A stretch of 64,000 nt of DNA from an uncultured Clostridia bacterium (GCA_947382865.1 CANDBF010000002.1:369-64368), one strand, 5' to 3'. Positions 8,282-48,917 are shown, counted from the stretch's first letter. Notes: generated by a model not told the origin, from the sequence alone. Made by a program: numbers and translations.

Positions 8282-8382
8282 CAGTTTTCTCCTTTGAAAA
8301 TCTTCTATACCTACATGAGTTAGTCTATCGACTTTTATGCCAAAAGGCATAACGATAGAACACCGCATAATACAGCGAGTTT

Positions 8383-9119: not shown

Positions 9120-11183
9120 TCAGTCTTTTTTCTCTTCCAACAAATCCTTCATAGAGTCGTCGTAGAAGCGGAAGGACTTTTTGCTTTCACGCTTAACCGT
9201 GTACATAGCGGCGTCGGCTCTCTTGAAAAGCTCGTCGAAATCGCCCTCGAAGCCGTCCGCATACGCTATGCCCATACTTATGCCTATATCGAAATGCTTA
9301 TATTTCTGCGTAATGCAGTCAAAAATTCTCTGAATCTGCGGCACGACGCTGTCCTTATATTCTATGAAGAACATAAACTCGTCTCCGCCCATACGGGACG
9401 CTATATCCGAACGGCGGATATTCTCCTTCAACCTCTGAGCTACAACGTCCAGCACTTCGTCTCCGAACAGGTGACCGTACACGTCGTTGGCTCCCTTGAA
9501 GTTGTCCAAATCGAATACAACAAGCGCATATTTTTTATTTCCGCCCTGCGCGAGTATGTTGGAAATGCAGCGCTTTGCGGCGGCATGGTTTAGAAGACCC
9601 GTCTTCGCGTCGCAGTTCGCCTGCTCTTCGAGGTAGTCAATCATATTCATCTCGGCGCTTATGTCCACGATTTTGCCGATAGCGCCCTCGAACTCGGGTA
9701 TCTCGCTGTCCGACCAGAGGACCTTGGCGATAACCTTATACCACTTTCTGTTTCCGCTGATGCTAAGCTGATATTTTTCGGAAACAACGGAATGCTCGGG
9801 CGTGGTTTTTTTCATCTTTTCGAGGAAATCCACAAAATTCTTTTTATTAAAGCGTCTGTTCCAAAGCTCGTTGCCGACGGGGTCCAGAATTTTCTGCGGC
9901 AAGCCAAGAGTCTCGGCGCTCCACTCCGAAAGCTGTATCATTTCGGGAACGGCGATATATTCAAATACGATTTCGCTTGAAATATCCGTCAGATATTTGA
10001 ATTTCATCCTCTCGTACTCGATGAGCTTAATCGTCCTGTTCGACATATCCGAGCCCTCGTTTTTGAGCATCTGCGTAACGGATTCGTGTATGCTGTTGGC
10101 AGTATTGACGCCGAAGGACATCACGTTGAGCTCCTGTTTGAGCTTGTCCGCCATATCTTTGAGGCATTCGAGCAAAATAGGATTGAAAGCTCCGCATTCG
10201 CCCCCGAGAATCATGCGTATTGCCTCCTCGTGGGTATATGCCGCCTTGTAGACGCGTTTGCTGGTGAGCGCGTCGTACACGTCCGCAAGCGCGACTACCT
10301 GCGCCGAAATCGGGATTTCCTCTCCCTTCAAGCCGTCCGGATAGCCTCTCCCGTCATAACGCTCATGGTGCCATCTGCAAATTTCATAGCCTATCTTGAT
10401 AAGAGCCTCGTTCCCGCGGAAAGGTATGTCGCCCAACATTTTGGCTCCCGCAACCGTGTGCTGCTTCATAATCTGAAACTCCTCGTCCGTAAAGCGGCCG
10501 GGCTTGTTGAGGATTTCGGAGGGAATTGTGATTTTTCCTACGTCGTGCAATGCCGAAGCGTTGCTTATAAGGCGGATATCCTTGAACGTAAGCGGATATT
10601 TATCCGTCTTTTTGACAAGCTCCTTCAAAATCATTTCGGTGAATGCGTGCACGTGCAGTACGTGCAAACCGCTCTCTCCGTTTCTGAACTCGACTATATG
10701 CGAGAGGATTTCAATCATAAGACTGTTGTCCTTCTCCTTTTCGTATATCTGAGCGGACAGCATCTCGGACATTTCCCTTTGCTTGACAGTCAGCATAAAG
10801 TTGCTCATCACACGGTGCTTGACCGTACGCTCGTCGAAGGGACGGCTTATGTAGTCTATCGCGCCCAAGTCGTACGCCCTGTCTATGTACGTGCCGCCCG
10901 TTTCGGCGGAAATGATTATGACGGGAATATTCTTTATCCAACCCGTCTGATTCATTTTTGCCAACACCTCGTAGCCGTCCATATTAGGCATAACTATATC
11001 GAGAAGCAAAAGCGAAATTTCCATCTCCTGATCGTGAAGTATGGAGATTGCTTCGAGTCCATCCTCTGCCTCGATGATGTCGAAATCCACCGAAAGCATG
11101 TCCGATAACAGAGCGCGGTTGATTTCGGAATCGTCTACCACAAGTATTTTCTTTTTGTTTTTATTGTCTTTGCTGTTGCTCAT
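9120..11183 (-). CDS. Response regulator with REC, HD-GYP, sensor-like linker and GGDEF domains (c-di-GMP turnover)
   Basis: REC: ILVVDDSEINR...LLLLDIVMPNMDGYEVL...PVIIISA. HD-GYP: ALHDVGKI...RWHHERYDGRGYPDGL. GGDEF: ASRMGGDEFMFF. Confidence 0.9.
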   Translation of the reverse strand: MSNSKDNKNKKKILVVDDSEINRALLSDMLSVDFDIIEAEDGLEAISILHDQEMEISLLLLDIVMPNMDGYEVLAKMNQTGWIKNIPVIIISAETGGTYIDRAYDLGAIDYISRPFDERTVKHRVMSNFMLTVKQREMSEMLSAQIYEKEKDNSLMIEILSHIVEFRNGESGLHVLHVHAFTEMILKELVKKTDKYPLTFKDIRLISNASALHDVGKITIPSEILNKPGRFTDEEFQIMKQHTVAGAKMLGDIPFRGNEALIKIGYEICRWHHERYDGRGYPDGLKGEEIPISAQVVALADVYDALTSKRVYKAAYTHEEAIRMILGGECGAFNPILLECLKDMADKLKQELNVMSFGVNTANSIHESVTQMLKNEGSDMSNRTIKLIEYERMKFKYLTDISSEIVFEYIAVPEMIQLSEWSAETLGLPQKILDPVGNELWNRRFNKKNFVDFLEKMKKTTPEHSVVSEKYQLSISGNRKWYKVIAKVLWSDSEIPEFEGAIGKIVDISAEMNMIDYLEEQANCDAKTGLLNHAAAKRCISNILAQGGNKKYALVVFDLDNFKGANDVYGHLFGDEVLDVVAQRLKENIRRSDIASRMGGDEFMFFIEYKDSVVPQIQRIFDCITQKYKHFDIGISMGIAYADGFEGDFDELFKRADAAMYTVKRESKKSFRFYDDSMKDLLEEKKD

Positions 11184-11449: not shown

Positions 11450-11683
11450 CTAATCGCTTATATCCTCAAATATAGGATCGTCGAAGAAATCTTTCAGGCT
11501 CATGCGCAGAGTCGCCGCTATCTGATAAACGGTATCCATTTTTACGGTTTTATTTTTGGCGTAAATCAAAAGACAAATCGTAGATCTCGGAATTCCGCCC
11601 AACTTTGACAGCTTATACTGAGTCATCGCCTTTTCGTCAAGCAAAGCCTCCACTCTTTTGCCGATAGCTTCAACCAATTTCAT
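11450..11683 (-). CDS. XRE-family helix-turn-helix transcriptional regulator (77 aa)
   Basis: Start moved from the track's 11746 to ATG 11683 (GAGGTGG RBS). The sequence MTQYKLSKLGGIPRSTICLLIYAKNKTVKMDTVYQIAATL is a typical HTH_XRE. Confidence 0.8.
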   Translation of the reverse strand: MKLVEAIGKRVEALLDEKAMTQYKLSKLGGIPRSTICLLIYAKNKTVKMDTVYQIAATLRMSLKDFFDDPIFEDISD

Positions 11684-11756
11684 AATCCACCTCGTTGACT
11701 GCGACAAACATACAATATAAATAATAAAATGTATTTTGTATTCCATAGTTTGTTAT

Positions 11757-12169: not shown

Positions 12170-13552
12170 TTAATCGTCCTCGCTCGGATTGTATTCTTCA
12201 TCGTCGCCGCCATCGCAATTATCCGATGCGTCCGACAATTCGTTATCGGAAAAAGTATCTTCTTCCACGTATTCCGGTCGAGGGACGCCCGATACATCGA
12301 AACCGCAATCATTCGGAGGCGAGCTTCCGTTCTTTGCGACTCTTTTAGCTTCTTTTTTCGCCATTCGCCGTTCTTTTTTTGTATTTCGTCTCGCCGCAAG
12401 TTTGGGCAGCTTTCCTAAACGCACCAGTATCTCGACCGTAATTACTGTTATAATAATGACAACGGCGATACATGCGACGACTATTCCCGCAATCGCCATT
12501 TCGCTTAATTTTGCTTTTACGATATCCAATCCGCTGTAATGTCTTATAAAATCATAAGGAGATTCGAGTTCTTCGGCGTTTTCCACGCTCGCGTCCTGAG
12601 CAAGCAACGCCATAATTTCGTTTTCCAGCCAAAAATACTTAAACTCGTCCTTAGGAGCGCCGCTCGCCATTCCGCTGGCTGTCCTGTCGGAATCCGAATA
12701 GAAGTATTTCGCATAGCCGTTGTCCCAGACCTGCAACGTGGCTCTGTAATAATTGTATTTTTCTATCGAATGCCCCGACACCTGCATATCCTTTTGCGCC
12801 ATCGAGTACCAATTTCTGATCAATTCGGCGTCCGCGCTCATATCCACCTCGAAGGTGACGGTATAAAACCCGTTTTCCGCGTCATACGTAATCTGCGCGC
12901 CGTCGGCGAGTATTTCCGCGCAGAATTGCATATTGTTTATCTCGTGCATGCTGTCAAGATAATGCAATTCTTCCTTAAAGTTTTCTTCGCTATATCCGAC
13001 GGGAGTCTGGGTGAGCTCGAAAGAGGCGTAAGGGAAAGTCTCCAATGAGCAATCGCAGTCCCCCGCCGAACCCGTTACGATAGAATACATATATTCGCCG
13101 CTCCCGTCTGTAAAAGCGACTTTAAGCAGACCCGCAAATTCCTTCATCAAAAAGTCTATCGGAGATATCACGTCCGTAGCAAGCTGATAATACCAGCTGT
13201 CTCCCGAACGCAGATTGAAGCTGTGCATTATCACGCTTCCCAGATATGATGGAATGCCCGCGTCGCTGTTCTGCACCATAAGCGACAGAGGCGTGGATAT
13301 ACGGCTGTAATTGGCGGTATTGTAAAGAGCGATGACGGCACGTTTTTTGGTCTGTTCGCTTGCGCCCTCCGTCATCGCCTCGTTTATAAGTGCCAAATCC
13401 TCGGGATTAAAAAGAGTATCGTAATGCGGGCGGCTTCCGTCCTCCAAATCCAGAACGCCGCTATTGTCTGCGTTTTTATTGCATGCCGCAAACAAACAAC
13501 AGGATGCGAGCGTTGCCAATATCAATATAAAAATAACAATTCGCTTTCTCAT
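12170..13552 (-). CDS. Lipoprotein with an additional C-terminal TM helix and charged/acidic tail; unknown function
   Basis: N-terminus MRKRIVIFILILATLASCCLFAAC-NKN is a signal peptide with a lipobox. The C-terminal helix is MAIAGIVVACIAVVIIITVITVEILV, followed by a K/R-rich and then a D/E-rich tail. Confidence 0.7.
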   Translation of the reverse strand: MRKRIVIFILILATLASCCLFAACNKNADNSGVLDLEDGSRPHYDTLFNPEDLALINEAMTEGASEQTKKRAVIALYNTANYSRISTPLSLMVQNSDAGIPSYLGSVIMHSFNLRSGDSWYYQLATDVISPIDFLMKEFAGLLKVAFTDGSGEYMYSIVTGSAGDCDCSLETFPYASFELTQTPVGYSEENFKEELHYLDSMHEINNMQFCAEILADGAQITYDAENGFYTVTFEVDMSADAELIRNWYSMAQKDMQVSGHSIEKYNYYRATLQVWDNGYAKYFYSDSDRTASGMASGAPKDEFKYFWLENEIMALLAQDASVENAEELESPYDFIRHYSGLDIVKAKLSEMAIAGIVVACIAVVIIITVITVEILVRLGKLPKLAARRNTKKERRMAKKEAKRVAKNGSSPPNDCGFDVSGVPRPEYVEEDTFSDNELSDASDNCDGGDDEEYNPSEDD

Positions 13553-14211: not shown

Positions 14212-14256
14212 AAATATACAAAAATAACCCATCCGCTTCACGAATGAAGAGATGGG
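14212..14256 (-). terminator. Terminator closing the phage-like cluster
   Basis: Stem CCCATC/GATGGG. On the minus strand it is followed by TTATTTTTGTATATTTTT. About 50 nt downstream of the stop at 14306. Confidence 0.5.
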
Positions 14257-14305: not shown

Positions 14306-15334
14306 TCAGAACACTTTCTTTATTCCGCTCTGCGTGCCTTTCAGCGCATTCATGAGTTTGTCGTAATAATTGCCGAGATAGTATTTCATATTCGGCGACG
14401 CCGCGAGCGCGTCGGCGGCAATATCGGGAGACAGCGAGGAATAGAAGTCGTAAGCAATATCGTATCTTTTTGCGTAATTCTCCTGCTTGGCTCCGCTGTA
14501 TCCGTACTGACTTTCGTGCTTTGCCAGCGCTTCCTGCTCCTCTTTTTTCTTTTTCTCGGCTTTTTCGAGATAATCGGCTATGTCCGTTTCCCTCTGCTTT
14601 TCATACTGCTCGTTCTGCTTGCGCACTTTCGCGTTATACTCCTCATATTCCTTTACGGTCTTGTCTCGCTTGCTTTTCAGCTCCGAAATACGGCTGTCCA
14701 GCTCCGCCGCGTATTTGAGGTCCAGCTCGTTAAGCGCGTTTTCTCTGTCCGCCTCCAGCTCGCCGATTCTTACGTCTATATCGTTCATGGTAGCGTTGTA
14801 GGATTTTCTGAGCTCTCCCGCGCTCTGCATTCTGGCAGTATCGAGGTCGCTTAGCTGCGTGACTGCAATACTGCTCCTTGCAAGTCCGCGTTTAAGCACG
14901 TCGTTTTCCGAGCGCTTGCGCAGCTCGTCGTACAGCTCCTGAAGCTGTTTATAGCTCTCTTTCAGGTTGTCGCCCGCCTGTTGCTTGGAGCCCGAGAGCG
15001 CGGCGAGCTTGGACTCGTAGCTGTCCGCGAGCTTGTTCTGCTCCGCGGTTTTGTTATACGTGTTTTCCTTTTCCGCTCTCGCGGCGATATCCTCGTCCGA
15101 TTCCCTTGTATATTCGATTTCCTTCAATCCCGAATTTACGGGGAACAGCTTATCGAGATCGGGCTCTTCCTCCTTCGGCAGAGAATTTATATACTCCTTT
15201 TCAAGTTCGGCGAGCCTGTCGGCAATATCCTTTTCGCGTTCGAGCGCGTCGTTTATCTGCTGTTGCTTCTCCTCCGCCCTCTGCGCGTCTGTCTTAAACA
15301 AATCCTTAAACTCGTCCCAAAGACTTTTTGCCAT
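14306..15334 (-). CDS. Coiled-coil phage-cluster protein (342 aa), function unknown
   Basis: GGAGGA RBS. Long E/K/L/A-rich heptad regions. Last gene of the cluster, in the position of a tail needle or internal protein in P22-type order (inference). Confidence 0.6.
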   Translation of the reverse strand: MAKSLWDEFKDLFKTDAQRAEEKQQQINDALEREKDIADRLAELEKEYINSLPKEEEPDLDKLFPVNSGLKEIEYTRESDEDIAARAEKENTYNKTAEQNKLADSYESKLAALSGSKQQAGDNLKESYKQLQELYDELRKRSENDVLKRGLARSSIAVTQLSDLDTARMQSAGELRKSYNATMNDIDVRIGELEADRENALNELDLKYAAELDSRISELKSKRDKTVKEYEEYNAKVRKQNEQYEKQRETDIADYLEKAEKKKKEEQEALAKHESQYGYSGAKQENYAKRYDIAYDFYSSLSPDIAADALAASPNMKYYLGNYYDKLMNALKGTQSGIKKVF

Positions 15335-15349
15335 AATTCCTCCGATATT

Positions 15350-15460
15350 CTATTGGTTTCCGCTTGCGGTATTTTTTTGCAAAGCGGACAGTTTTTTTTC
15401 GAGGACGCTCACTCTGACTACGAGCTCCTCCAAAGTTGCTATAATTTCGTTTATATTCAT
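15350..15460 (-). CDS. Small 36-aa ORF in the phage-like cluster
   Basis: The track ORF 15350..15532 was shortened to ATG 15460, which is preceded by GGAGGAAAT. Sequence MNINEIIATLEELVVRVSVLEKKLSALQKNTASGNQ. It fits exactly between two cluster genes. Confidence 0.45.
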   Translation of the reverse strand: MNINEIIATLEELVVRVSVLEKKLSALQKNTASGNQ

Positions 15461-15468
15461 ATTTCCTC

Positions 15469-16908
15469 CTAAACCGACAGCGTATCTACCGCCGCAATCA
15501 AAGGAGTTACGTACGCGTCCGCGCTGTCGCAAATCAATTCAAAGCCGATTCTTCCGCCGCATTTTTCGATTGGCACTGTCTGCATAGTCTCGCTCCCGCA
15601 GACCTCATAGTCATATTGCTTGCCGTCCGCCTTTACTCGCAGCGTCAGATCCGAAGTCGTCAGCAGCGAGACGCTCCTCACAGTTTTCAGAGCGGACGAG
15701 CCGAGCGTTCCGTAAGGGCTGATATATCTTTTTTTTGTCGGCACGTTCATGACCTTTCCGCTTCCCGAAACCATTCCCAGCTTCTTTATATCGTCGCCTC
15801 GCGCAAACACGCAAAGCACCTGCGAGCCGTTGTGAACGCGCACGGATTTCAAAACCCGCACCGCATAGCCGTACAGTATGGAAATGGATTTATCTCTGAG
15901 GTTATATCTTACTACCGCATTGTTCTGATCCGAATCCTCCCATATGCAGCACGCCAGATAATAGCATCCGTCGAGATACGCTCCGCTTATAAGATGCTTT
16001 CTGTAAACTGCGGGCATTTCGACCGCTATACGCGAAACCACGTATCCGTCAAAGGCATAAAGCCCGTCCTCCGCATAGAAGATAATTTTGTCTCCGCATA
16101 CCTCAATCGAGTTTTTAACTATACGTCCCGTATCGGTAAACACCTTTTTCATCAAAAATTCGCTCTGGTCTCCGTAGGCGGTCAGTCGGAAAATGCCGTA
16201 TTCCCTGAACACGTAAAGATAGTTCAGAAAAGAAACGACCTTCAACACCTCTCCGCATTCGTCGGAGAAGTTTATGTAGCCCGCCTCGCCCGAGCTCACG
16301 TTCCAGTTCACGGGGTTGAAATCATCCGAAAACCACACCTGCGGCTTTGACCCGTTGAAGCTGCCGTACACTCTTTCGTTGTGCACGGCAAGCGACGTGA
16401 ACTTTGGAGTGTTCATACACGCCATAGGCGTCGTATCGTTGAGGACAAGCAGCATATCCCTGCCGCTCGTAAGCAGAAGCACGTCGTTTCCGTTGTAGTT
16501 GTAATTCACAGTCCACACGTCCTTTGTTATTATGATTTCGGGAATCTCGTGCCACGTATCCGTTTTGAATATCGACGTATAATAGAAATGTCCGCTCGTC
16601 GCCTGCGCGATAAGCCTGTCGTCGCGCACTCCCTCCTCGGTCAGCCGTCTGTACAGAAAAACGTCCTTGATTCCTCTTGTTCCGGGGATTTCGGGATATA
16701 AGTGCCTCGCCACTATGGGCGCGAAGTAGTATCCCTCGGCGGGGTCTATGCCGATTCCGCCCGTAAGCGCTCCGTTTTCAAATGCGAAGTTGTACGCCTT
16801 ATCCGTATACGCCATATCCAGCACGCCCTCGTCGGTAGTATTGACGATGCCCTTAAATCCTACGCGCACTCTGCTCTTTCCCACTCTGACCTCTTTCAAA
16901 CCTGCCAC
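15469..16908 (-). CDS. Phage structural protein (479 aa), beta-rich; size and position resemble P22 gp10-type tail hub protein
   Basis: GTG start at 16908; an alternative GTG at 16884 follows AAAGAGG. No motif was recognised. The call rests on gene order only. Confidence 0.5.
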   Translation of the reverse strand: MAGLKEVRVGKSRVRVGFKGIVNTTDEGVLDMAYTDKAYNFAFENGALTGGIGIDPAEGYYFAPIVARHLYPEIPGTRGIKDVFLYRRLTEEGVRDDRLIAQATSGHFYYTSIFKTDTWHEIPEIIITKDVWTVNYNYNGNDVLLLTSGRDMLLVLNDTTPMACMNTPKFTSLAVHNERVYGSFNGSKPQVWFSDDFNPVNWNVSSGEAGYINFSDECGEVLKVVSFLNYLYVFREYGIFRLTAYGDQSEFLMKKVFTDTGRIVKNSIEVCGDKIIFYAEDGLYAFDGYVVSRIAVEMPAVYRKHLISGAYLDGCYYLACCIWEDSDQNNAVVRYNLRDKSISILYGYAVRVLKSVRVHNGSQVLCVFARGDDIKKLGMVSGSGKVMNVPTKKRYISPYGTLGSSALKTVRSVSLLTTSDLTLRVKADGKQYDYEVCGSETMQTVPIEKCGGRIGFELICDSADAYVTPLIAAVDTLSV

Positions 16909-17441
16909 CTCCTCTCTTTGAGCATGAGTCTCCTGCCCTTATATCTTAGGAATCCGAGTTTCTCTCTGAATGACGAATCGAAGCTCTTGGCCAGGTCGAA
17001 AACCTTGTTTGCAAAATAGTATTCGCCGAGGGCTCCGTCGCTCAGCGCGGACTGCGTAAGTCTTAGGTTTTCAATATCGTCCGCAAGTTTCAGCTCGTCG
17101 GGCATATAGGCGTACTCCAATGCGGCGTAGCCGTCCGTTGCCGCCACGATTCTGTCCGCATATGCCTTGAATGCAACGACGCTGTCGCCCTTTGTCACCC
17201 TGATGGGATAAATTATCTTTTTTTCGAGTGGCGCTACGGCGTATTCGCCTTTCTCAAACAAGACCGTTTCGGTATGGACGAGCGGAAGATATTCGCACAC
17301 AACCTCCCTGTACGCTATATTAAGCGCGGCGAGCAAGGAATCTATGAGCTTCTGTTCGGTTTCGGTGTAGGAGGTTTTGGACGTAAAGTCCGTCTCCCCC
17401 ATTTTTATCAGGCATTCTCCGATGATTTTTTTTACTGTCAT
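16896..17441 (-). CDS. Phage head-completion/adaptor-sized protein (181 aa)
   Basis: The track ORF 16896..17771 was shortened: its N-terminal 110 aa overlap the 103-aa gene in another frame and look like junk. ATG 17441 forms an ATGA overlap with the upstream stop. Confidence 0.55.
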   Translation of the reverse strand: MTVKKIIGECLIKMGETDFTSKTSYTETEQKLIDSLLAALNIAYREVVCEYLPLVHTETVLFEKGEYAVAPLEKKIIYPIRVTKGDSVVAFKAYADRIVAATDGYAALEYAYMPDELKLADDIENLRLTQSALSDGALGEYYFANKVFDLAKSFDSSFREKLGFLRYKGRRLMLKERRWQV

Positions 17442-17749
17442 AACGCTTGTTCGACCTCCTCCATAATTCTTTCGCGCGCGGTCGCGACGTTTTGCCTGCG
17501 CAGCTTTTCGTTGTCCGAATCGATATCGCGCATAAGCCTGTCCGCGTATTCTAGCCGGGTGCTTCTTACAAGCTCCAAAGTACGCGCGTCGAGCCGTGCA
17601 AAGGGCACTACGATTTGCAGTGCCCCGTTTGCATGAATTTCGAATCTGTTCAATTTGCGATTTCTGTACAGCACGTATCTGGGATCGATCTCGCGCAGTC
17701 TGCTTGCTATATCGAACAAATCCTCGTCGATTCTCGTCAGCTCGTGCAT
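17438..17749 (-). CDS. Phage-cluster protein (103 aa), unknown
   Basis: Starts 2 nt after the capsid gene stop. Its stop overlaps the next start (ATGA). Confidence 0.55.
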   Translation of the reverse strand: MHELTRIDEDLFDIASRLREIDPRYVLYRNRKLNRFEIHANGALQIVVPFARLDARTLELVRSTRLEYADRLMRDIDSDNEKLRRQNVATARERIMEEVEQAL

Positions 17750-17751
17750 AA

Positions 17752-19185
17752 TTACACCCAGTTGGCGACAAGCGTTATGTCGGAGTGGACGGGAATGGTG
17801 TTGAAGGTGAACTTCTTGCCGTCGCAGAACCAGCCATCGAACTCGAACGTCGCCTTAGTGGGAGACATAGGCTGAACCACATAGCCGCCGGGCTTGACGA
17901 TCTGCGGTCTTACCTCCGTGCCGCCGAGTGTATCGAAGGTGACGGTGTAGTATTGCGGCTCTTCCGTCTCGCCGCCGCCCGAGTTATCGGAGCCGCCGCC
18001 CGTGACGCCGCCAGTTTTCCCCGTAAACGTAAGTTTCGCCTGACCCATGGGACGCTCGCAGAGCAAATCCGCATACTTGACGAGCGTCGCGCTGTAACAC
18101 GCCTTGCCCGGCACTTGATGAAGCACGCTTCCGCTCTCGCCTTCCAGCCAGCGCCAGTCGCAGAGCTGATGCAGCTTAAAGTCGCCGCTGTTGAGCAGAT
18201 ACATATCGCTGTCGCCCACAAATCTGTCCGCGACGAAGGGCACTCCCGAATATGACAGCGCCTTGTAGCCGCCGTCGAGCGTAAGATAGTCGATGTTGGT
18301 GCGGGTGGCGGAAAGATGGTCGACGTACTGCTTTCTCACTCCGTAGGAAGCGACGATGAAGTCGATTGCCCCTCCCGAGGTCTCTTCCACTGCGTCGATA
18401 GCGTCCTGAATCGCGCTCACCGTAACGGTACCGTCCACCGTCTGCGTATAAGGCGTGAGGAAGGAATAATCCGCTCTGTTCAAGCCGTAAATGGAAGCGG
18501 TGTCGCCGAATACGGCTTCCAGACCCGTGATTTCGTTGTTTTTGGAGCCCTGTACGTAAACCTTGCAGCCCGCGCCGCACTTTGCCGCCGCGCTCGCGCT
18601 CAAAGATACGACATTCTTGGCTCTGTCGATCGAGGTAATTCTTGCGCCTGACAGCGCCGTATCCTTCACGCCCTCTGCGGAATATACGTCAACCGTCATA
18701 CCCTCCATCAACGCCTTTATGCTGTCGACGGTAATCTGGTTGTTGTAGTCGCCGACGTTTTCGACCGTGGTCGCGATAACGCCGCTTCCGTCTCCGTAAA
18801 GCATACGTCCGAAGTTGAATTTGCTCGCTTTAAGCAAGCCGTCCATTTCGGCATTGAGCAGATTTACAAACGCGCCCGCGTTGTTCTGGGAAGCGCGTAT
18901 CGCCTTGTCGGAGAGCTCGATTTTCCCGAACAGGTTTTTGAGAGTGAGCGTAAACTGAGCGTAGTTATTGCCGCCGCTCGCGGGCAGATTGTCGCTCTCC
19001 TCTCCCGAGCCTATGCCGCCGTTTATTCCGTAGGGAGCGAGCTTTTTGACCTCCTTGCCCCATACGTCGGCGGTCGTCTGCTCGATTTTTGCAAGCAAGG
19101 GATTGACTCCCACATTGAGCTGGTCGGCGAGAACGCCGAGATAGAATGTCTTTAACGCCTTGTCGGCGTTGGAAATAGTTACCAT
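17752..19185 (-). CDS. Phage major capsid protein with C-terminal Gly-rich linker and Flg_new (Listeria-Bacteroides repeat)-like domain
   Basis: Sits directly after the scaffold and portal genes. The N-terminal ~390 aa resemble Firmicute phage capsid proteins from memory (KNLFGKIELSDKAIRASQNNAGAFVNLLNAEMDGLL). The C-terminus is GGVTGGGSDNSGGGETEEPQ followed by YTVTFDTLGGTEVRPQIVKPGGYVVQPMSPTKATFEFDGWF...ITLVANWV. Confidence 0.7.
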   Translation of the reverse strand: MVTISNADKALKTFYLGVLADQLNVGVNPLLAKIEQTTADVWGKEVKKLAPYGINGGIGSGEESDNLPASGGNNYAQFTLTLKNLFGKIELSDKAIRASQNNAGAFVNLLNAEMDGLLKASKFNFGRMLYGDGSGVIATTVENVGDYNNQITVDSIKALMEGMTVDVYSAEGVKDTALSGARITSIDRAKNVVSLSASAAAKCGAGCKVYVQGSKNNEITGLEAVFGDTASIYGLNRADYSFLTPYTQTVDGTVTVSAIQDAIDAVEETSGGAIDFIVASYGVRKQYVDHLSATRTNIDYLTLDGGYKALSYSGVPFVADRFVGDSDMYLLNSGDFKLHQLCDWRWLEGESGSVLHQVPGKACYSATLVKYADLLCERPMGQAKLTFTGKTGGVTGGGSDNSGGGETEEPQYYTVTFDTLGGTEVRPQIVKPGGYVVQPMSPTKATFEFDGWFCDGKKFTFNTIPVHSDITLVANWV

Positions 19186-19196
19186 AATCTTTTCTC

Positions 19197-19898
19197 CTAT
19201 TTATTATTTTTCAAAAACATAAATCCGGCTTCCTCTATGGTCTTCGGCTTCGCTGCGGGAGCGACGCATTGCAGTCCGCCGTTGCTCAACATGTGCGGCG
19301 GAAGTCCCGTGCGCATATCGCTGAGATACTGCGAAATTATTGCGTCTTTGACCTTGTCGGAGCGCAGCACGTAATCGTTCAGAAATTGTCCGTCCTCCAT
19401 AAGCTGCTCGGGCGTTCTGAACTTGTCGGCAAGCACGTTAAGCAGAGCGGATTTGAGGCAGTTTTCCTCTTGTCTGAGTTGCGGATTTTCAAGAAGCTGA
19501 TTTGCTATGTCCTTTGCAAACGCTCTGGCGGTGGGGATTTCCGAAAAAAACTTGTCCACCTCGCTCTTCCACTCCTCGTCGCTCCTCGGTTGCTTGCGGT
19601 TTATGCCGTTTTCAAGCTCTTTGAGCCTCTGCGAACGGCGGGTGAATTCCTTTTCCAGCTCGCCGTAAGCGCGCAGCAGTTCCTGCGGGTTTCTGAATTT
19701 GCCCAATTTATGTTTGTTGATTTCCTCATCGTTTGCGGCGTCCGCGATTTCGTTTTCGCCGCTATCCTCGCTTTCCCCTACGATTTCGGGATTGACGCCG
19801 CACGCGTCCTCCTCCGCCGCCTCGGCGGCTGCCATAAACGCCGTAACTCCGCCGTTCTGCGATTCCGTTGCCATATCGAATTTATCGTTCGCTTTCAT
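19197..19898 (-). CDS. Phage scaffolding protein (233 aa, positional call)
   Basis: Start moved from the track's 19928 to ATG 19898 (AAGGAG 6 nt upstream). Acidic, helical, low-complexity sequence between the portal and capsid genes. Confidence 0.55.
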   Translation of the reverse strand: MKANDKFDMATESQNGGVTAFMAAAEAAEEDACGVNPEIVGESEDSGENEIADAANDEEINKHKLGKFRNPQELLRAYGELEKEFTRRSQRLKELENGINRKQPRSDEEWKSEVDKFFSEIPTARAFAKDIANQLLENPQLRQEENCLKSALLNVLADKFRTPEQLMEDGQFLNDYVLRSDKVKDAIISQYLSDMRTGLPPHMLSNGGLQCVAPAAKPKTIEEAGFMFLKNNK

Positions 19899-21768
19899 TT
19901 TCGACTCCTTGTTCAAAACGTTTTTCAAGTTCGCTTATGCCGCTGTCTAGAGCGGACAGCTGCGCGTGCTTTGCAATGTGACTCGCCACTCTGTCGTGCA
20001 GCGCCTTATCCTTGCCGCACTTGGAGGATACGCACATCTTGATATGCTCCGAAATGTGCATAGAATGGTTGTCGTACACGTCGGGGGTAATCTCGCCGTT
20101 CTCGAAGTCGAGATTCTCTTTTAGAGCCTTTTTGCGGTGGATCTCCTCTTCGCTCCTGCCGTTCTCCCAGTTTCCGAAGCCGAGTATTTCAAACAGTCTG
20201 GTCTTCGTATCGGCGGGCATTCTGCCGTCGTTGTCCGTAAACAGACCCAGCTTGAGCAGGTCGTACACCATAGCCCTGCGCGCCGACAGCGTGTCCTCGA
20301 TGTCGTTGAGAGTATCGAACACTATATCCTCGCTGTCGATATTGCTTGCCGAGAACGCGGCTATTTCCACCTCTCCGTTCTCGCCCGTTATACGCTTTAC
20401 TCTGGGCACCTTTGCAAACTGGCGGTAGAGCCTAAGTATCTGCTTGCCTATACGCTTGACCGCCTCGCGCAGGCTGTCTGCGGTGAGCGATATTCTCGTA
20501 TCGTCCTGTTCGAGCAAAAGCGAGATAGCCGTGCCCGACGACACGTTGGACGGCACCTGCGAATAGGTCGTCACCTCGCTCACTCCGCTTATCATCACAA
20601 ATTCGTTGAGTAGCTTTTCCTCCTCGCGTGAAAACTCGGACGGCACCTGTGAGGGGCTCAGCATAATCGGCGGAGTGCTCCCCTGTCTGTATACGACGAT
20701 TTTTCCGGGCGGCAGTCCCTCCTCCTCCAAGAGATCGGTGTCCACCGCTCCGTCCTCCACCGCGAGCACGCCCACGGCTATGCGGTTCATAAACTCGTGC
20801 TTTCTGTTTTTGACGGCGTTGTAGGCGCGCTGTACGGGGATAATTCGCTCTACGACGGACGTTCCGAAGAAGTTAGTCAGATTGTCTATGCACACCTGTC
20901 TTGCAAAGGGATATTCCCTCTTTCCGTTTTCGCCGTTTACGTACGGCAGGTCGCCCATATGCAAGAGTCTGTCGCCCGCGACTATAATAAGTCTGCCGTT
21001 GGGGTGCTCGGCGGTAGGCATCTCGTACTTTTCTATTACGGTAACGCTGTCGTCCCTCTTCTCGCTCACCATCTTGGGTACGGTGGCGGTATAGCCGTAG
21101 CCTCCCGCGACTTGCGCGTTGTCGAAGGAAAACACGTTTACTTCGCCGCCCTTTACCTCCTTATTCCAAATTCTCTTGACCTCGGCGGCGGTGAGCACCT
21201 TCACGTGCATAATTGACGACTGCTTATCTATATCGGTTATGGCGATATCCTCGGGGAATATCTCGAAGGGCGGACAGAGCGTGATGTCCACGTCCCCCTC
21301 GCGCACCAAGCCGTCCGCGTCGAGAGCGCGGCCCTTTTCCGCGGCCCAAGTGACCTTGAAAAACGCGCTTCCCGTAATCTCGCTCCAAGTGTTTGCAAGC
21401 GACAGCTGTGCGGAAAAATCGTTCTCCTTGCAGACTGCGTCGATGAGCTTTGTCGCAAGAGACGCGGACGCGACGTCGTCGTCATCGGAGGTAGCGGGTC
21501 TCACGGTAGCCTTGGCTTTTACTCTCGACAGCTTCGCAAGACGCGTTTCGAGAATAGGCGCAATATGGTTGTACACCTCGCGCTGTTGCCAGAAATACTG
21601 CTTGCCGTCGTCCTCGATATCTCCCTTCGGCGAAATCTGCGCAAACTGGTTGCCCATCACGAAATTCATATTGAGCCGCCAGTTGAGTTCAACGGGTCGT
21701 CTCGCTTCCTGCCTTTTCTTAAAATCGGCATTCACCTCGGAAACGATTTTTTGTTCCAAATCAGACAT
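19882..21768 (-). CDS. Phage portal protein (628 aa)
   Basis: AAGGAGAA RBS. Size and position fit a portal, lying downstream of TerL and the 102-aa gene. The N-terminus NWRLNMNFVMGNQF...REVYNHIAPILETRLAKL is typical of portal families (from memory). Confidence 0.75.
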   Translation of the reverse strand: MSDLEQKIVSEVNADFKKRQEARRPVELNWRLNMNFVMGNQFAQISPKGDIEDDGKQYFWQQREVYNHIAPILETRLAKLSRVKAKATVRPATSDDDDVASASLATKLIDAVCKENDFSAQLSLANTWSEITGSAFFKVTWAAEKGRALDADGLVREGDVDITLCPPFEIFPEDIAITDIDKQSSIMHVKVLTAAEVKRIWNKEVKGGEVNVFSFDNAQVAGGYGYTATVPKMVSEKRDDSVTVIEKYEMPTAEHPNGRLIIVAGDRLLHMGDLPYVNGENGKREYPFARQVCIDNLTNFFGTSVVERIIPVQRAYNAVKNRKHEFMNRIAVGVLAVEDGAVDTDLLEEEGLPPGKIVVYRQGSTPPIMLSPSQVPSEFSREEEKLLNEFVMISGVSEVTTYSQVPSNVSSGTAISLLLEQDDTRISLTADSLREAVKRIGKQILRLYRQFAKVPRVKRITGENGEVEIAAFSASNIDSEDIVFDTLNDIEDTLSARRAMVYDLLKLGLFTDNDGRMPADTKTRLFEILGFGNWENGRSEEEIHRKKALKENLDFENGEITPDVYDNHSMHISEHIKMCVSSKCGKDKALHDRVASHIAKHAQLSALDSGISELEKRFEQGVENESER

Positions 21769-21787
21769 ATTTTTCTCCTTTCTATTT

Positions 21788-22096
21788 TTAACGCCGCTCG
21801 GACGCTATGTCCTTTGCGGCGTTTATTTTCATATTCTCTTCCTTTTCCAGCTCCTTTAACAGCCTTCGTCTTTCGCGTTCGAGCTCCTCGTCCGAGAGCT
21901 CCGAAATCCCGTCCTCCTCGCTCAGCTCCAAATAAGTTTTAAGCGCGCCGCTGTCGGGCGGGCAGTATTTTTCCGTCACCTTACGCTTTGTCAGCGCGAT
22001 TTCGCCGTCCTCCTTAACGGCATACTCCTCCTGCACCTCTTTATAGTTGTAGCCCTTAGCTCTTTTAAGCAGAGCTTTCAGAATTTCCCCGTCCAT
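21788..22096 (-). CDS. Small phage protein (102 aa); C-terminal part resembles small-terminase-type sequences
   Basis: AAGAGGGGAAG RBS. The gene overlaps the TerL end by 19 nt. The motif KGYNYKEVQEEY...TKRKVTEKYCPPDSGALKTYLE recalls the G[YF]xYEE...PPD...A segment of Firmicute phage TerS proteins (from memory, weak). Confidence 0.4.
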   Translation of the reverse strand: MDGEILKALLKRAKGYNYKEVQEEYAVKEDGEIALTKRKVTEKYCPPDSGALKTYLELSEEDGISELSDEELERERRRLLKELEKEENMKINAAKDIASERR

Positions 22097-23517
22097 TGTC
22101 TTCCCCTCTTAACGTTGCGTATCAGCTTTTCCTTATCCGCCTGAATCTCCGTCTTGGCGAGCACGGGCAGAGGCGTAGGCTTCGCCTGCGTCATAACGAA
22201 GTATCTCAGCTCGTCAAGCGAATGGTCGTCGACTTTTTTGGGTCTGTCGCCGCGCCCCCACCAATAGCTTTTGATTTCGCGTATCAGGTTTACGCAGTTT
22301 GAAAATATTCGTATTCTAGGCGGTCTTTGCTCAAATAAGGACTTTACGCGCTGTATTCCGCTGTATAAATCCTTGTTTACGTTGGTATTCACCAAAATAC
22401 CCTTTTCGCAGAACAGCTCCGCTACGCTCTTTTCCGAGGCGAGCGTGCGTTGATTCGCCGCGCTGTCGATAAGCGCGTGAAGTCTGCCCTTGCCGTCCGT
22501 AGGCCAGCCGAGAGAGTTTGCGATTCTGAATATTTCCTCCACGTGATAATCGATGTTCTGCCCCGCCTCGTAGTGCTCCGCCACCACGTAAATCACTCCG
22601 TCGTAATCCACCGCATAGAAATGACAGCTGGTCGGATTGGAAAGTCCGGGGTCTATGGAGATATTGTTATACCAGTTTTTAGGAACCGAGAATGGCTCTA
22701 TCACGTGGACGCTTGCGTCGAACTCCGGATACACCAATCCCTCTCCCGTCGAGAATTTCCCGTATCTTCTTGATAGCTGTTCGCTTTTCGGCACGACGGT
22801 TTCCATCGCCTTGACCTCCGTCGGGTCGAGATATGGATTGTCGCTCCATTGCATATATTCGCACCAGACCTCGGGGTCGTCGTTGCAATTTAGTTCGATT
22901 TCGTCATACACCCAAGTGAGACCTTTAAGAGGAGTCATTGTTCCGAATATATCTCCGCGCCTGTCGAACACCCTCATCCTGCATTCGTCGTAAATATCCT
23001 TCGGCGGCTCCTCGTCAAACCACACGAAATCCAACGATACGCCCTGAAACTTCTCTCTCCCTTGGTCGCAGGATTTGAAGCCTATTCTGCTCGTCCCGCC
23101 GAACGCGTTTCTGACGACGATATAGTCGATAACCCCGTATTCGGGCGAAGTATGCTTTCCCTCGCGCATGACTATATCCGCCATATATCTGGGCGAAAGG
23201 TATTTGAGTATTTTCGCCTGCGCCACGTCCCTCTGAACCTGCTGGGACAGACTGACCACCCACCCCGACACGTTGTCCCGATTGCGTCTGAACGGGTGTA
23301 TGCCTCTTGCAAGCCATACGCTCTCGACCGCGCCGCACTCCGTCTTTCCGGAGCGGTTGCCGCCGAACACCCAGCGGTTACGCTTTGCGCACTTATGAAA
23401 AGCCATCTGTTTTTCGTGCACCTTATCGGAGTTATATGCCGCGAGAGAGTCGCTTTTTCTGACGTCGATTTCGTGTTCGATTTTTAGAAGTTTGAAAAGC
23501 GTATCGTTGTCTTTCAT
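22078..23517 (-). CDS. Phage terminase large subunit
   Basis: Walker-A-like FGGNRSGKTECG, DFVWFDEE (Walker B) and a C-terminal nuclease-type VDDHSLDELRY. The track starts at TTG 23553; ATG 23517 was chosen. Neither start has a clear RBS. Confidence 0.85.
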   Translation of the reverse strand: MKDNDTLFKLLKIEHEIDVRKSDSLAAYNSDKVHEKQMAFHKCAKRNRWVFGGNRSGKTECGAVESVWLARGIHPFRRNRDNVSGWVVSLSQQVQRDVAQAKILKYLSPRYMADIVMREGKHTSPEYGVIDYIVVRNAFGGTSRIGFKSCDQGREKFQGVSLDFVWFDEEPPKDIYDECRMRVFDRRGDIFGTMTPLKGLTWVYDEIELNCNDDPEVWCEYMQWSDNPYLDPTEVKAMETVVPKSEQLSRRYGKFSTGEGLVYPEFDASVHVIEPFSVPKNWYNNISIDPGLSNPTSCHFYAVDYDGVIYVVAEHYEAGQNIDYHVEEIFRIANSLGWPTDGKGRLHALIDSAANQRTLASEKSVAELFCEKGILVNTNVNKDLYSGIQRVKSLFEQRPPRIRIFSNCVNLIREIKSYWWGRGDRPKKVDDHSLDELRYFVMTQAKPTPLPVLAKTEIQADKEKLIRNVKRGRQWTGKF

Positions 23518-23654
23518 AAGCCGAGAATAATATCGACGCCGCGCAAAATACAAAAAATTATGTCAATCAAATCCTAATAAATACAAAAAATTCTCTCTGA
23601 AATTGCTCGGAAAGGCTTTCAATTTACAGTTTCTTATAGTATTATATAGGCACT

Positions 23655-24665
23655 ATGGGAAAAACCTTTGCAAAAACCGTGCTCATCGTATGCGTAGCGT
23701 TGGCGATATTCGTCGCCGCTCTTTTCTGCATTCCGACGTCTTCGGTCGCGCATGCGGACGAAACTGTCACGGTCGTAAAGGCTACTGTAAGCAATCTTAC
23801 GGGCAACGCCTATGCGGGCAAATCCGCCTTAAAAATTTACAGAGACGCCGATTCTTTCTATGTACCCGAGAGTTATTTTATAAGAATAGACGCAAAAATG
23901 GGAATTTTCGGATACGCGGTCACTTACTGCGGCAACTCAAACTGCTTTATCGCCACTGACGACTTAAACAATTTCGTGCAGGAAACCATTTCAATAGGCG
24001 AAAACGAGGTCATATTTCCCGACGTACGTCTTTCTCTCAAAGACGGCGCGGAGGTCACCGTAGGAAATAGAAACTTAACGTCCGATTACACTATCAAATT
24101 CTGGGGCTACGGCAGCGATGAAAACGAGGGAAAAATCTACGTATCGGCGACTCTCAACGGCAATACTGTCTACGGCTTTATAAACTCAGAGGATTTGGAG
24201 GCTTTCAATGTAGGCTATCAGCAAAGAGCGCAGGCAGAGCGCAACGCTATACTGGAAGCTCAAAAGAAGCCCGAAATATCCGACGGCACAATTACTCCCA
24301 AAACCTCTCTCGGTCTGCGCATAGTGCTTATAATCGGCATAACAGTCCCCACTCTGATAATAATAATCCTGCTCTTCAAGCCGTCAAAAAACGAGAGACG
24401 CCGCGCAGGAAACTCCGTACGCAGAGACAGAGCGGACGATGAAATCGATTATGATGACCCACGTTCCTATCGTCGCAGAGACGACAGGCGATACGACGAT
24501 GACAGAAGATATGACGACAGGCGCGACGACAGAGACAGGCGTTCCGACCGCGACAGACGTGACGATTACGAACGCGACAGAGATTATGACAGGGATTACG
24601 ACCGCCGTTACCGTGACGATGACCGCCGCGATTATGACAGAGACGACTCCCGCCCAAGCAGATAA
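23655..24665 (+). CDS. Type-I membrane protein with signal peptide, ~200-aa ectodomain, one TM and an Arg/Asp-repeat cytoplasmic tail
   Basis: Signal peptide MGKTFAKTVLIVCVALAIFVAALFCIPTSSVAHA. TM helix LRIVLIIGITVPTLIIIILLF. Tail RRDDRRYDDDRRYDDRRDDRDRRSDRDRRDDYERDRDYDRDYDRRYRDDDRRDYDRDD. Confidence 0.7.
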   Translation: MGKTFAKTVLIVCVALAIFVAALFCIPTSSVAHADETVTVVKATVSNLTGNAYAGKSALKIYRDADSFYVPESYFIRIDAKMGIFGYAVTYCGNSNCFIATDDLNNFVQETISIGENEVIFPDVRLSLKDGAEVTVGNRNLTSDYTIKFWGYGSDENEGKIYVSATLNGNTVYGFINSEDLEAFNVGYQQRAQAERNAILEAQKKPEISDGTITPKTSLGLRIVLIIGITVPTLIIIILLFKPSKNERRRAGNSVRRDRADDEIDYDDPRSYRRRDDRRYDDDRRYDDRRDDRDRRSDRDRRDDYERDRDYDRDYDRRYRDDDRRDYDRDDSRPSR

Positions 24666-24706: not shown

Positions 24707-24743
24707 AAAAATCAGTTGGTTAGTGAGGCTAACCAACTGATTT
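24707..24743. terminator. Bidirectional rho-independent terminator between convergent genes
   Basis: 16-bp perfect stem AAAATCAGTTGGTTAG/CTAACCAACTGATTTT with loop tgagg and A/T runs on both sides. Confidence 0.85.
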
Positions 24744-24837
24744 TATTCTTTATTGATGATCGCTTACAAGTCTGTCAACTCCTTTGGGGAAGCACGGCGA
24801 GCGTTTCGACGTACATACCCCTACGCACGAAAAGCAA

Positions 24838-48916: not shown

Positions 48917-48917
48917 A

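Follow-up and report, generated by a model that had tools for sequence, protein, structure and literature searches.

Gene content and layout of the locus

Within the window, by which we mean the whole 64-kb stretch of DNA analysed, positions 14306-23553 of the minus strand carry ten tightly packed and intact phage-type genes, as read from the open reading frames. All junctions between the genes are overlaps or gaps of at most 19 nt (calculated from the coordinates), and their GC content of 0.50-0.545 is close to that of the window as a whole (about 0.50), so that the original prediction of a co-directional, closely spaced and unbroken gene set with host-like composition is confirmed. The cluster and about 45 genes of the window were scanned against Pfam, PHROG and NCBIfam. 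The neighbouring genes are host-type, and include an rRNA_methylase/MnmM family member, a TRAM/U5 methyltransferase and PFK, with trpS, thrC, prfA, V-ATPase and ABC transporter genes elsewhere in the window. In agreement with the prediction, these family scans identified no integrase, replication or repressor genes in the 64 kb, nor any fibre, receptor-binding, holin or endolysin genes, the latter absence counting against the GTA-like reading discussed below; tailspike and ejection-protein families were also not found in the window. The features of the locus are as follows.

23655-24665, plus strand: single-pass membrane protein, 336 aa, divergent from TerL and conserved together with the cluster
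23518-23654, unstranded: divergent control region of 137 nt between the membrane protein and TerL
22078-23517, minus strand: large terminase (TerL), 479 aa (Terminase_6N, 5.8e-10; Terminase_6C; phrog_2, 6.9e-28)
21788-22096, minus strand: candidate small-terminase remnant, 102 aa, resembling the C-terminal segment of TerS
19882-21768, minus strand: portal, 628 aa (P22_portal, 1.3e-24; SU10_portal, 8.6e-11; phrog_156, 2.4e-42)
19197-19898, minus strand: putative scaffolding protein, 233 aa, between portal and capsid genes
17752-19185, minus strand: major capsid protein (MCP), 477 aa (phrog_14242, 7e-54; NF033394 capsid_maj_Podo, 263 bits)
17438-17749, minus strand: conserved protein, 103 aa
16896-17441, minus strand: predicted head-to-tail adaptor of the T7-gp11/SU10 type, 181 aa (AF2 model, Foldseek)
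15469-16899 or 15469-16908, minus strand: predicted tail nozzle/hub, 476-479 aa, a beta-propeller of the P22 gp10 / T7 gp12 type
15350-15460, minus strand: ORF of 36 aa with AGGAGG as ribosome-binding site, encoding the short, helical MNINEIIATLEELVVRVSVLEKKLSALQKNTASGNQ (sequence and site read directly)
14306-15334, minus strand: DUF7934 protein, 342 aa (Pfam PF25588, 6e-104)
14228-14248, minus strand: terminator-like hairpin followed by a T-run, 3' of the last gene (pattern scan and reading)

The DNA packaging genes lie at the upstream end of the cluster. The longest ORF of TerL spans 22078-23553 and is open to a TTG at 23553; the real start is likely to be the ATG at 23517, in agreement with the orthologues, to which TerL is 57-88% identical. 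Walker A (GGNRSGKT), Walker B (FVWFDEE) and the acidic motifs of the nuclease are present in its translation. The 102-aa protein has no match in the PDB; however, it and its 16 aligned orthologues all match the TerS family phrog_309 (17/17, best E 1.8e-9), with matches confined to approximately positions 195-243 of the 319 in the profile, that is, to the C-terminal third, as would be expected if the DNA-binding N-domain had been lost. No full-length TerS is encoded ahead of TerL, as predicted, but what appears to be a small-terminase remnant does exist, placed after it. The portal is confirmed as P22-type (PF16510 at 87 bits, with a cut-off of 26).

The 233-aa protein has no family matches in Pfam or PHROG and is putatively assigned as the scaffold, from its position between portal and MCP and its acidic, helical composition; it is kept in 67 loci, with dN/dS of 0.03-0.29. 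The MCP, judged by its sequence, belongs to the HK97-fold family. Its C-terminus carries a fused Listeria-Bacteroides repeat (Flg_new; residues 413-474, 2.4e-12, encoded at approximately 17755-17949), a domain that is missing from the ~390-aa MCP orthologues of distant lineages. The 103-aa protein, kept in at least 41 loci with dN/dS of 0.07-0.36, has no family or PDB match (Pfam, PHROG and PDB) and is possibly a head or connector accessory.

The two tail components were assigned by structure prediction. The 181-aa protein (AF2 model, pLDDT 89) is modelled as an adaptor of the T7-gp11/SU10 type, with Foldseek matches in the PDB to SU10 (7z47_A/B, TM 0.64-0.67), Pa223 (9nwi_A, TM 0.67, rmsd 3.9), GP4 (8jov_2), N4, crAss001 and T7 gp11. 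An adaptor of the P22 gp4 type was rejected, as no P22 gp4 chain is found among the top 50 Foldseek matches. The 476-479-aa protein (pLDDT 89, pTM 0.89) is likewise modelled as a gp10/gp12-type nozzle: its best Foldseek match in the PDB is Pa223 9nwi_Y (E 2e-20, TM 0.74), followed by others to VP1, GP4, SU10 and T7 gp12, with a TM of 0.65 to the P22 gp10 chains 9jg6_a and 8u10_1. Its BFVD matches carry the annotation “P22 Gp10”, and there is a profile match to SU10 7z47_G (E 4e-4). The P22-type layout originally proposed was therefore largely right for the nozzle and the presence of an adaptor, but not for the adaptor being gp4-type.

The 36-aa ORF is annotated as a gene on an identical ENA contig (L001), and in distant lineages its position holds an ORF of ~120 aa. 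The DUF7934 protein, which is charged, mostly helical and has a conserved domain rich in Tyr at its C-terminus, is kept in 60 loci (dN/dS 0.03-0.17) and is probably a virion protein. A search of its profile against the PDB found no relative, and no needle or ejection protein, and so did not confirm the analogy to the gp26 needle that had originally been drawn for it. The 103-aa, 36-aa and DUF7934 proteins are the three conserved members of the module without an assigned role.

Upstream of TerL, the membrane protein had been described as unrelated; instead it is conserved together with the cluster, with an orthologue adjoining the TerL gene in 55 loci, some of them distant, and it probably belongs to the module. 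Its signal peptide is followed by an ectodomain of ~190 aa, a TM helix and a cytoplasmic tail rich in Arg, Asp and Tyr, a topology seen across alignment A6 at a mean identity of 25%, and its dN/dS is 0.05-0.28. It has no Pfam, NCBIfam or PDB match, while motifs in the ectodomain look SH3b-like on our own reading. In a MAFFT alignment of 17 species, the 137-nt control region contains two near-invariant blocks, TATAATACTATAAT..TTGaCAAATTGAAAGTCTTT and TTGACATAATTTTTTG...cGGTCTTATTCT, which are kept although dS exceeds 1 between these species. The promoter of its own that was attributed to the cluster is this conserved region, which has a -35-like TTGACA but lacks a canonical -10 at 16-18 nt from it. 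Similarly, a terminator was predicted and a hairpin is present at 14228-14248, but it is a weak match (nine pairs, three of them G-C) from a pattern scan that overall returned no enrichment of sites over shuffled sequence.

Distribution, inheritance and selection

At least 528 genomes of uncultured Clostridia, counted at species level, encode the MCP; all are MAGs with vague taxonomy, a point that we count against the explanation favoured below. There is one module locus per genome, and the module has the same gene order in 80 of 80 loci fetched from this set. Among these relatives protein identities drop as low as 20-60%, and many pairs are saturated for dS. Most genes are complete (over 92% of those examined), with full-length copies of TerL in 66 of 69 loci, portal in 75 of 77, MCP in 74 of 74, adaptor in 64 of 65, nozzle in 59 of 64 and DUF7934 in 55 of 59. 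A few loci have insertions or splits within the module, which also speaks against the favoured explanation. Pairwise dN/dS, calculated from unsaturated pairs, is 0.01-0.36 for every gene, far from the value near 1 that the original prediction had named as evidence to the contrary. For TerL and the TerS remnant it is 0.02-0.17.

The flanks of the module are host genes (encoding a DUF1538 protein, M20 peptidase, GH2, MurG, RNase J and ComEC/HolA), and the classes of flank shift clade by clade in step with the neighbour-joining (NJ) tree of the portal, the pattern that vertical descent would produce. Across the 80 loci, genes for integrase, replication or repressors do not recur. A complete prophage of the module's lineage, of which the cluster might be a strain-specific truncation, is not seen at the site in any of the fetched relatives. 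Genes linked to the module in distant lineages encode a BhlA-family holin, a Phage_holin_1 protein and a sigma-r4-like protein.

A candidate GTA-like system and its alternatives

We consider the locus to be a domesticated, vertically inherited podovirus-derived module, most likely making GTA-like particles that package host DNA, with a probability of roughly 0.6. Among the possibilities raised originally, this host-maintained, GTA-like one is favoured by colinearity across at least 528 species, flanks that track the portal tree, low dN/dS and the lack of a complete prophage. The analysis has established which genes are present and how their products fold, that they are intact, conserved and under purifying selection, that the module is fixed in the chromosome and that mobility and replication genes are lacking; that particles form, take up random DNA, are released and deliver it to recipients is our inference. 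In the mechanism that we propose, a dedicated factor acting at the conserved non-canonical promoter would turn the operon on in a subpopulation, and procapsids would form on the portal. TerL, working without a sequence-specific TerS, would package arbitrary pieces of the chromosome into the heads by the headful route, the adaptor and nozzle would seal the portal, and particles would be released through lysis. Holins, cis-encoded in related lineages, are presumably located elsewhere in the genome in this one.

The closest precedent of the module is FpGTA of Faecalibacterium prausnitzii, a podovirus-like element with experimentally shown particles of ~40 nm that contain random host DNA of 8.5-9 kb (Nat Commun 2026, PMC12946183). 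In Christensenellaceae MAGs, GTA-type packaging of ~4-6 kb has been observed, with the gene cluster for it not found (PMC12946183). FpGTA shares with the module a chromosomal location in a gut Clostridia lineage, an operon of about ten genes in ~10 kb, podovirus-type tail parts and the absence of integrase and replication genes. It is near-ubiquitous in its host genus, and its TerS-like protein has no DNA-binding domain, which the remnant of the module seems to lack as well. Taking gene order from accessions RCH50852 to RCH50844 and functions from Supplementary Data 2 (PMC12946183), operon I of FpGTA reads TerL-portal-x-MCP-x-x-nozzle-x-coiled-coil protein, which is the order in the window. 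The tail end of the operon parallels MCP-p103-p181-p479-p36-DUF7934, its last gene being annotated “TolA” and encoding an abundant, charged coiled coil. DUF7934 has the same position as this FpGTA particle protein, RCH50844.

There are also differences. The FpGTA MCP (RCH50849) is annotated as N4-gp56 family, whereas that of the module is capsid_maj_Podo, with no N4-gp56 match at E<=0.01 in NCBIfam; given this mismatch, which we count against the GTA-like reading, homology of the two elements is unproven, and they are compared by order and annotation. The FpGTA gene in the scaffold position is annotated Prp-like, unlike that of the module, and only in the module does a TerS remnant follow TerL, a membrane protein is conserved alongside, and the MCP has a fused repeat domain. 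FpGTA has a second operon 125 kb away, encoding fibres, a receptor-binding protein, holin and endolysin (PMC12946183), while no such operon is found in the 64-kb window. Particles and packaging have been demonstrated for FpGTA, and the module is known from its genes alone. If our reading is correct, the module would be a GTA-like system of the kind demonstrated in Faecalibacterium.

It is possible, but in our view unlikely, that the module instead makes a PBSX-like defective particle, packaging host DNA or none and not delivering it. Such particles would serve for killing, lysis or a public good, for instance as a kind of bacteriocin or a means of releasing eDNA. The lack of fibre and receptor-binding genes linked to the module and the linkage of holins in several lineages would fit such a particle, and the FpGTA authors raise the same caveat of non-delivery for their own element (PMC12946183). 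However, the podovirus nozzle is not accompanied by contractile or pore-forming machinery of the tailocin type, and the strong purifying selection on both TerL and the remnant of TerS points to DNA packaging as the function that is being selected.

We think it very unlikely that the module is a capsid-forming satellite similar to the cf-PICIs, with its own heads and short tail and packaging itself, but dependent on a helper for induction, fibres and lysis. A compact head and packaging module without lysis or fibre genes is compatible with a satellite, as are the prophages found directly beside or inside the module in some genomes and the 40 related contigs listed as viral in IMG/VR. Those contigs, however, are short chromosomal fragments or carriers of unrelated inserted prophages. 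Furthermore, an integrase, primase or replication gene, regulator pair or att-like structure is found neither in the window nor recurrently in the 80 loci, there is a single locus per genome, and the flanks change along the portal tree instead of pointing to site-specific or scattered insertion.

Still less probable is that the module is one part of an autonomous temperate or chronic phage, with the genes for replication, fibres and lysis elsewhere in the genome. The distant second structural and lysis operon of FpGTA (PMC12946183) could be seen as a parallel, as could two loci, L130 and L131, where the surroundings of a related MCP are phage-like and include reverse transcriptase, ThiF and RNase H. 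Against this, there are no known split autonomous phages persisting across hundreds of species, the module is flanked in the chromosome by host housekeeping genes, and no close free-phage relative is found among 50,697 phage records, the nearest isolated phages being actinobacteriophages such as Shocker, at only 24-28% identity. Finally, despite the phage-derived content and the missing phage modules, a recently truncated or decaying prophage remnant, intact by chance in this strain, is effectively refuted, and the original view that the cluster is not such a remnant upheld, by the ten-gene order common to at least 528 species at 20-60% identity and often saturated dS, dN/dS well below 1 for every gene, the conserved promoter region and the absence of a complete same-lineage prophage from the site (0/80 fetched loci).

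Relationship to other phage-derived systems

RcGTA of the Alphaproteobacteria resembles the module, on the GTA-like reading favoured here, in that a head-tail cluster has been domesticated, is inherited vertically under purifying selection and has no replication or integration genes. The TerS of RcGTA lacks sequence specificity, as that of the module may do. We also list as shared the control by host regulators and the possibility that accessory and lysis loci are unlinked. The two differ in architecture, RcGTA being siphovirus-like (tail tube, tape measure and baseplate) with an HK97 prohead protease, and the module podovirus-like (adaptor, nozzle and scaffold); their proteins are unrelated in sequence and the hosts belong to different phyla. 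The cf-PICIs are similarly compact chromosomal islands that encode their own TerL, portal, MCP and connectors but not the complete genes for a tail or for lysis. Unlike the module, with which no integrase, regulators or replication genes were found, they carry all three, and they are mobile and site-specific, with siphovirus-type HK97 heads and helper tails, none of which is seen here.

The podovirus affinity of the module is evident in the order of its genes, which resembles the P22 late operon 2-1-8-5-4-10-26, in the family match of its portal to that of P22 (P22_portal), and in the predicted folds of its nozzle, matching those of P22, T7, Pa223, VP1 and GP4, and its adaptor, matching T7 gp11, SU10 and Pa223, although sequence identity to these podovirus tail parts is no more than 15%. 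In contrast to P22-type virions, there are no tailspikes or fibres, ejection proteins or recognisable needle, and the rest of the phage genome is absent.

PBSX of Bacillus is, like the module, a chromosomally fixed phage-like element in the Bacillota, and it packages random host DNA, as we infer for the module. It is otherwise dissimilar: a myovirus-like element of ~28 kb, it has a contractile tail as well as a repressor and lysis cassette, and it acts by killing, not by transduction. It has no gene order or homology in common with the module beyond the generic folds of TerL, portal and MCP. The sigma-like late regulator of PBSX, Xpf, may have a parallel in the sigma-r4-like gene that lies beside distant versions of the module.

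Gene content of the module and predicted products

The ten phage-derived genes at 14306-23553 are confirmed. All are encoded on the minus strand and are tightly packed, neighbouring genes either overlapping or standing no more than 19 nt apart, as recognised in the original prediction.

Genes of the module, from TerL to DUF7934, with family or fold matches
22078-23517/23553, minus: TerL, matching Terminase_6N/6C and phrog_2
21788-22096, minus: 102-aa protein, TerS remnant, matching phrog_309
19882-21768, minus: portal, matching P22_portal (1.3e-24)
19197-19898, minus: candidate scaffold, 233 aa
17752-19185, minus: capsid protein (MCP), 477 aa, matching phrog_14242 (7e-54) and NCBIfam capsid_maj_Podo (263 bits)
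17438-17749, minus: 103-aa protein
16896-17441, minus: 181-aa protein, predicted adaptor (AlphaFold2 model and PDB fold matches)
15469-16908, minus: 476-479-aa protein, nozzle (AlphaFold2 model and PDB fold matches)
15350-15460, minus: 36-aa ORF with a good ribosome-binding site
14306-15334, minus: 342-aa protein, matching Pfam DUF7934 (6e-104)

The AlphaFold2 model of the 479-aa protein (pLDDT 89, pTM 0.89) has its best nozzle match in the PDB to Pa223 (E 2e-20, TM 0.74), with further nozzle matches to VP1, GP4, SU10, P22 gp10 (TM 0.65) and T7 gp12; in BFVD it matches proteins of uncultured podoviruses annotated as “P22 Gp10”. The earlier parallel with P22 gp10 is upheld. The 181-aa protein, which had been likened to P22 gp4, is modelled (pLDDT 89) with a fold matching the adaptors of SU10, Pa223 (TM 0.67, rmsd 3.9), GP4, N4, crAss001 and T7 gp11, and so is predicted to be a head-to-tail adaptor, of the T7-gp11 rather than the P22-gp4 type. 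Given these fold matches, the module encodes portal, adaptor and nozzle, i.e. the core of a short tail. The small terminase profile phrog_309 is matched by the 102-aa protein and 16 aligned orthologues (17 sequences) across only the C-terminal third of the profile, thus indicating a TerS remnant that lacks the usual N-terminal DNA-binding domain. No full-length TerS precedes TerL, as previously noted, but the remnant is present after it. PDB profile searches with DUF7934, the 103-aa and 102-aa proteins and the neighbouring membrane protein gave nothing meaningful, and no informative relatives were found for the 103-aa protein, the 36-aa peptide or DUF7934, whose suggested likeness to the P22 needle is hypothetical.

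Residues 413-474 of the MCP (window 17755-17949) form a C-terminal Listeria-Bacteroides repeat (Flg_new) domain, a repeat typical of Bacillota surface adhesins. The domain is present in the lineage of the window, where MCPs are of about 455-477 aa; distant lineages, with MCPs of roughly 390 aa, and a few close relatives (loci L018, L032 and L038) lack it. This scattered distribution implies repeated gain or loss. A representative search with the full MCP alignment matched mainly multi-repeat Flg_new surface proteins, with about 35 true MCP representatives among the matches listed.

According to family scans, the rest of the annotated 64-kb window carries host-type genes, including those for an MnmM-family methylase, a TRAM/U5 methyltransferase, phosphofructokinase, trpS, thrC, prfA/prmC, ABC transporters, a V-ATPase operon and large surface proteins. 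The same scans found no integrase, replication, repressor, fibre, holin or endolysin genes in the window, bearing out the earlier claim that integration, regulatory, replication, lysis and fibre genes are lacking, and the GC content of the module is, as had been stated, unremarkable within the window. In the V-type ATPase operon (48281-56440, minus strand), Pfam identifies the A and I subunits, and the remaining ones are putatively assigned by the length of their ORFs. Two predicted surface proteins are giant, at 1631 aa (3473-8368, minus) and 2151 aa (57521-63976, minus), and have weak repeat matches only (Chlamydia PMP repeat, YDG domain). A response-regulator/HD-GYP/GGDEF protein (9120-11183, minus) and a small Cro/C1-type HTH protein (11450-11746, minus) are encoded 2.5-5 kb downstream of the module; neither is conserved with the module in other loci, and a 38%-identical relative of the HTH protein occurs in loci L104 and L116.

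Distribution, descent and selection

Relatives of the MCP number over 5,000 in metagenomic protein sets, on contigs of up to 1.75 Mb, and are present in at least 528 species-level genomes in a scan of one genome per species. Among the matches listed, all carriers are uncultured Clostridia or “Christensenella”-labelled MAGs from gut and rumen. The order TerL, TerS remnant, portal, scaffold, MCP, 103-aa protein, adaptor, nozzle and DUF7934 is common to all 80 of the 80 loci fetched, with orthologue protein identity ranging from about 88% down to 20-60%. Most copies are full-length (TerL 66/69, portal 75/77, MCP 74/74, adaptor 64/65, nozzle 59/64 and DUF7934 55/59), and pairwise Nei-Gojobori dN/dS for unsaturated pairs is 0.01-0.36 for all module genes, including those of unassigned function, far from a value near 1.

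In relatives the module is neighboured by genes for a DUF1538 membrane protein, M20 peptidase, GH2, MurG, RNase J, ComEC/HolA or lipoate ligase. These host neighbours vary by clade, in step with the portal tree, which argues for vertical descent with slow genome rearrangement and not for a mobile element. Conserved order, purifying dN/dS values and flanks that follow the portal tree support, with corrections, the host-maintained, GTA-like reading of the original prediction. A 460-aa protein without a Pfam match (12170-13552, minus), downstream of the MnmM-family gene, forms with it a pair that adjoins the module in the close relatives L001, L004, L006 and L027 (38-99% identity) and lies outside the widely conserved unit. 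In distant loci, the genes that follow the module were considered as fibre candidates and rejected, since they encode host proteins, namely ComEC, HolA, RNase J, an M28 peptidase and a BspA-type LRR protein.

The membrane partner, its control region and variant modules

The 336-aa membrane protein encoded divergently from TerL (23655-24665, plus strand) had been taken as unrelated to the module, a view that does not hold, as it adjoins TerL in 55 loci, very distant ones included. Its signal peptide is followed by about 190 aa of ectodomain, a single TM helix and a low-complexity tail rich in Arg, Asp and Tyr, and the protein is fast-evolving yet constrained (25% mean identity, dN/dS 0.05-0.28). 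The 137-nt intergenic region between the two genes contains two blocks that are nearly invariant across species with saturated synonymous sites, and the TerL-side block carries a perfect TTGACA. The predicted promoter region is thus substantiated as a conserved control region, but not as a canonical sigma-70 promoter, since no -10 box for TerL was found at the right spacing from TTGACA; this suggests a dedicated factor. At the other end of the membrane protein gene, where it converges with a methyltransferase gene, a perfect inverted repeat of 16-17 bp with T-runs on both strands (24708-24744) looks like a bidirectional terminator.

In distant lineages, a weakly matching sigma-70-region-4/HTH protein is encoded upstream of the membrane gene, and downstream of DUF7934 lie genes for a BhlA-family holin and a Phage_holin_1 protein; tBLASTn with these holins, the sigma-like protein and small accessory ORFs gave no matches in the window. 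A minimal variant (L123-L126, e.g. L123:2378-10485) keeps the BhlA holin and has neither DUF7934 nor the membrane partner. Its order is TerL, 81-aa protein, portal, 182-aa protein, MCP, 106-aa protein, 175-aa protein, 497-aa nozzle and BhlA holin, flanked by lipoate-protein ligase on one side and NTP-transferase/RNase J on the other. In an expanded variant (L128:935-18230), portal and MCP are separated by additional genes of 460 aa and 391 aa, the DUF7934 protein is 403 aa long, and a 457-aa protein contains a Phage_holin_1 domain.

Some relatives carry prophage-like insertions in the module (L088:3376-7263, L103:5867-10000 and L121:6249-7172). In L088, two large serine recombinases, following Mtd_N, Prophage_tail and gp58-like tail genes, adjoin a TerL reduced to residues 288-485; in L121, TerL is reduced to residues 181-486; and in L103, recombinases adjoin the start of the MCP. 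Temperate phages may use genes of the module to attach. In three further loci (L117:5986-12763, L104:8658-15290 and L116, from IMG/VR), one of whose MCPs is 82% identical to that of the window, the module is interrupted or truncated, the MCP being followed by restriction- or defence-like DNA methyltransferase and helicase genes in place of the 103-aa protein, adaptor and nozzle.

Relation to gene transfer agents and phages

To our knowledge, gene transfer agents (GTAs) are well understood only in Alphaproteobacteria, and that of Faecalibacterium prausnitzii (FpGTA) is the first podovirus-like GTA from the gut and from a Gram-positive bacterium. FpGTA, described in 2026 from a single genus, is encoded by a ten-gene operon comprising a TerS without DNA-binding domain, TerL, portal, a gene in the scaffold position, MCP, two small genes, nozzle, a small gene and an abundant coiled-coil “TolA” protein (PMC12946183). 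Its particles, of about 40 nm, contain 8.5-9 kb of random host DNA, and its fibres and lysis genes are in a second operon 125 kb distant; GTA-type packaging of about 4-6 kb was also seen for Christensenellaceae MAGs, with no gene cluster identified (PMC12946183). Our literature searches on DUF7934, FpGTA and GTAs in Christensenellaceae or Clostridia found nothing relevant beyond this paper.

FpGTA is the closest precedent for the module. Its gene order agrees with that of the module, whereas its MCP is annotated as N4-gp56 family and that of the window is capsid_maj_Podo. As the comparison is one of gene order and annotation, we class the locus by its likely mode of action with podovirus-type GTAs and not as a proven FpGTA orthologue. 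The data fit a domesticated particle-forming system, for which we infer that particles form, are filled with host DNA by a headful mechanism, are released and transfer this DNA. With a probability of 0.4 for the whole reading, the module would belong to an ancient podovirus-derived GTA family, domesticated apart from FpGTA or very deeply diverged from it, and fixed throughout an order-level radiation that comprises more than 500 species of uncultured gut and rumen Clostridia. It would stand out by a non-canonical promoter and a regulator of its own, by a fast-evolving membrane partner whose outward-facing ectodomain perhaps serves immunity, uptake or the control of release, and, in some lineages, by a capsid displaying the adhesin-type repeat domain; GTA-type packaging in Christensenellaceae viromes would also have found its missing gene cluster. 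If this is true, there is a second GTA family, conserved in hundreds of species of uncultured Clostridia from gut and rumen, much of the gut microbiota shares the capacity to transfer host DNA in capsids as a general trait, and the unexplained Christensenellaceae packaging signals gain candidate genes. The TerS remnant, DUF7934, the membrane partner and the conserved promoter are offered as parts for testing.

The main rival to the GTA reading is a particle of the PBSX kind, which would not deliver DNA. A satellite or autonomous phage is strongly argued against. No close isolated phage was found among 50,697 records, the best matches being actinobacteriophages such as Shocker (portal 24%, MCP 28% identity), which shares the order TerL, small ORFs, portal, scaffold and MCP. 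Forty related “viral” contigs in IMG/VR are chromosomal fragments of the module; since such loci are at present mis-called there as viral, the module provides a concrete marker set for virome studies. One MCP cluster is seen in many samples on near-identical minimal-variant contigs of about 15.8-16.6 kb; they were considered as a small complete phage genome and rejected, being chromosomal fragments with an eight-gene module, BhlA holin and host flanks. A decaying remnant is excluded by the data.

A related 359-aa MCP is found in a different, phage-like context in L130 (2420-9688) and L131, where small genes come next, then two genes of 182 aa and 466 aa that have the size of adaptor and nozzle, and then ThiF, reverse transcriptase (RVT_1) and RNase H; these loci may represent a free-phage relative with a diversity-generating retroelement.
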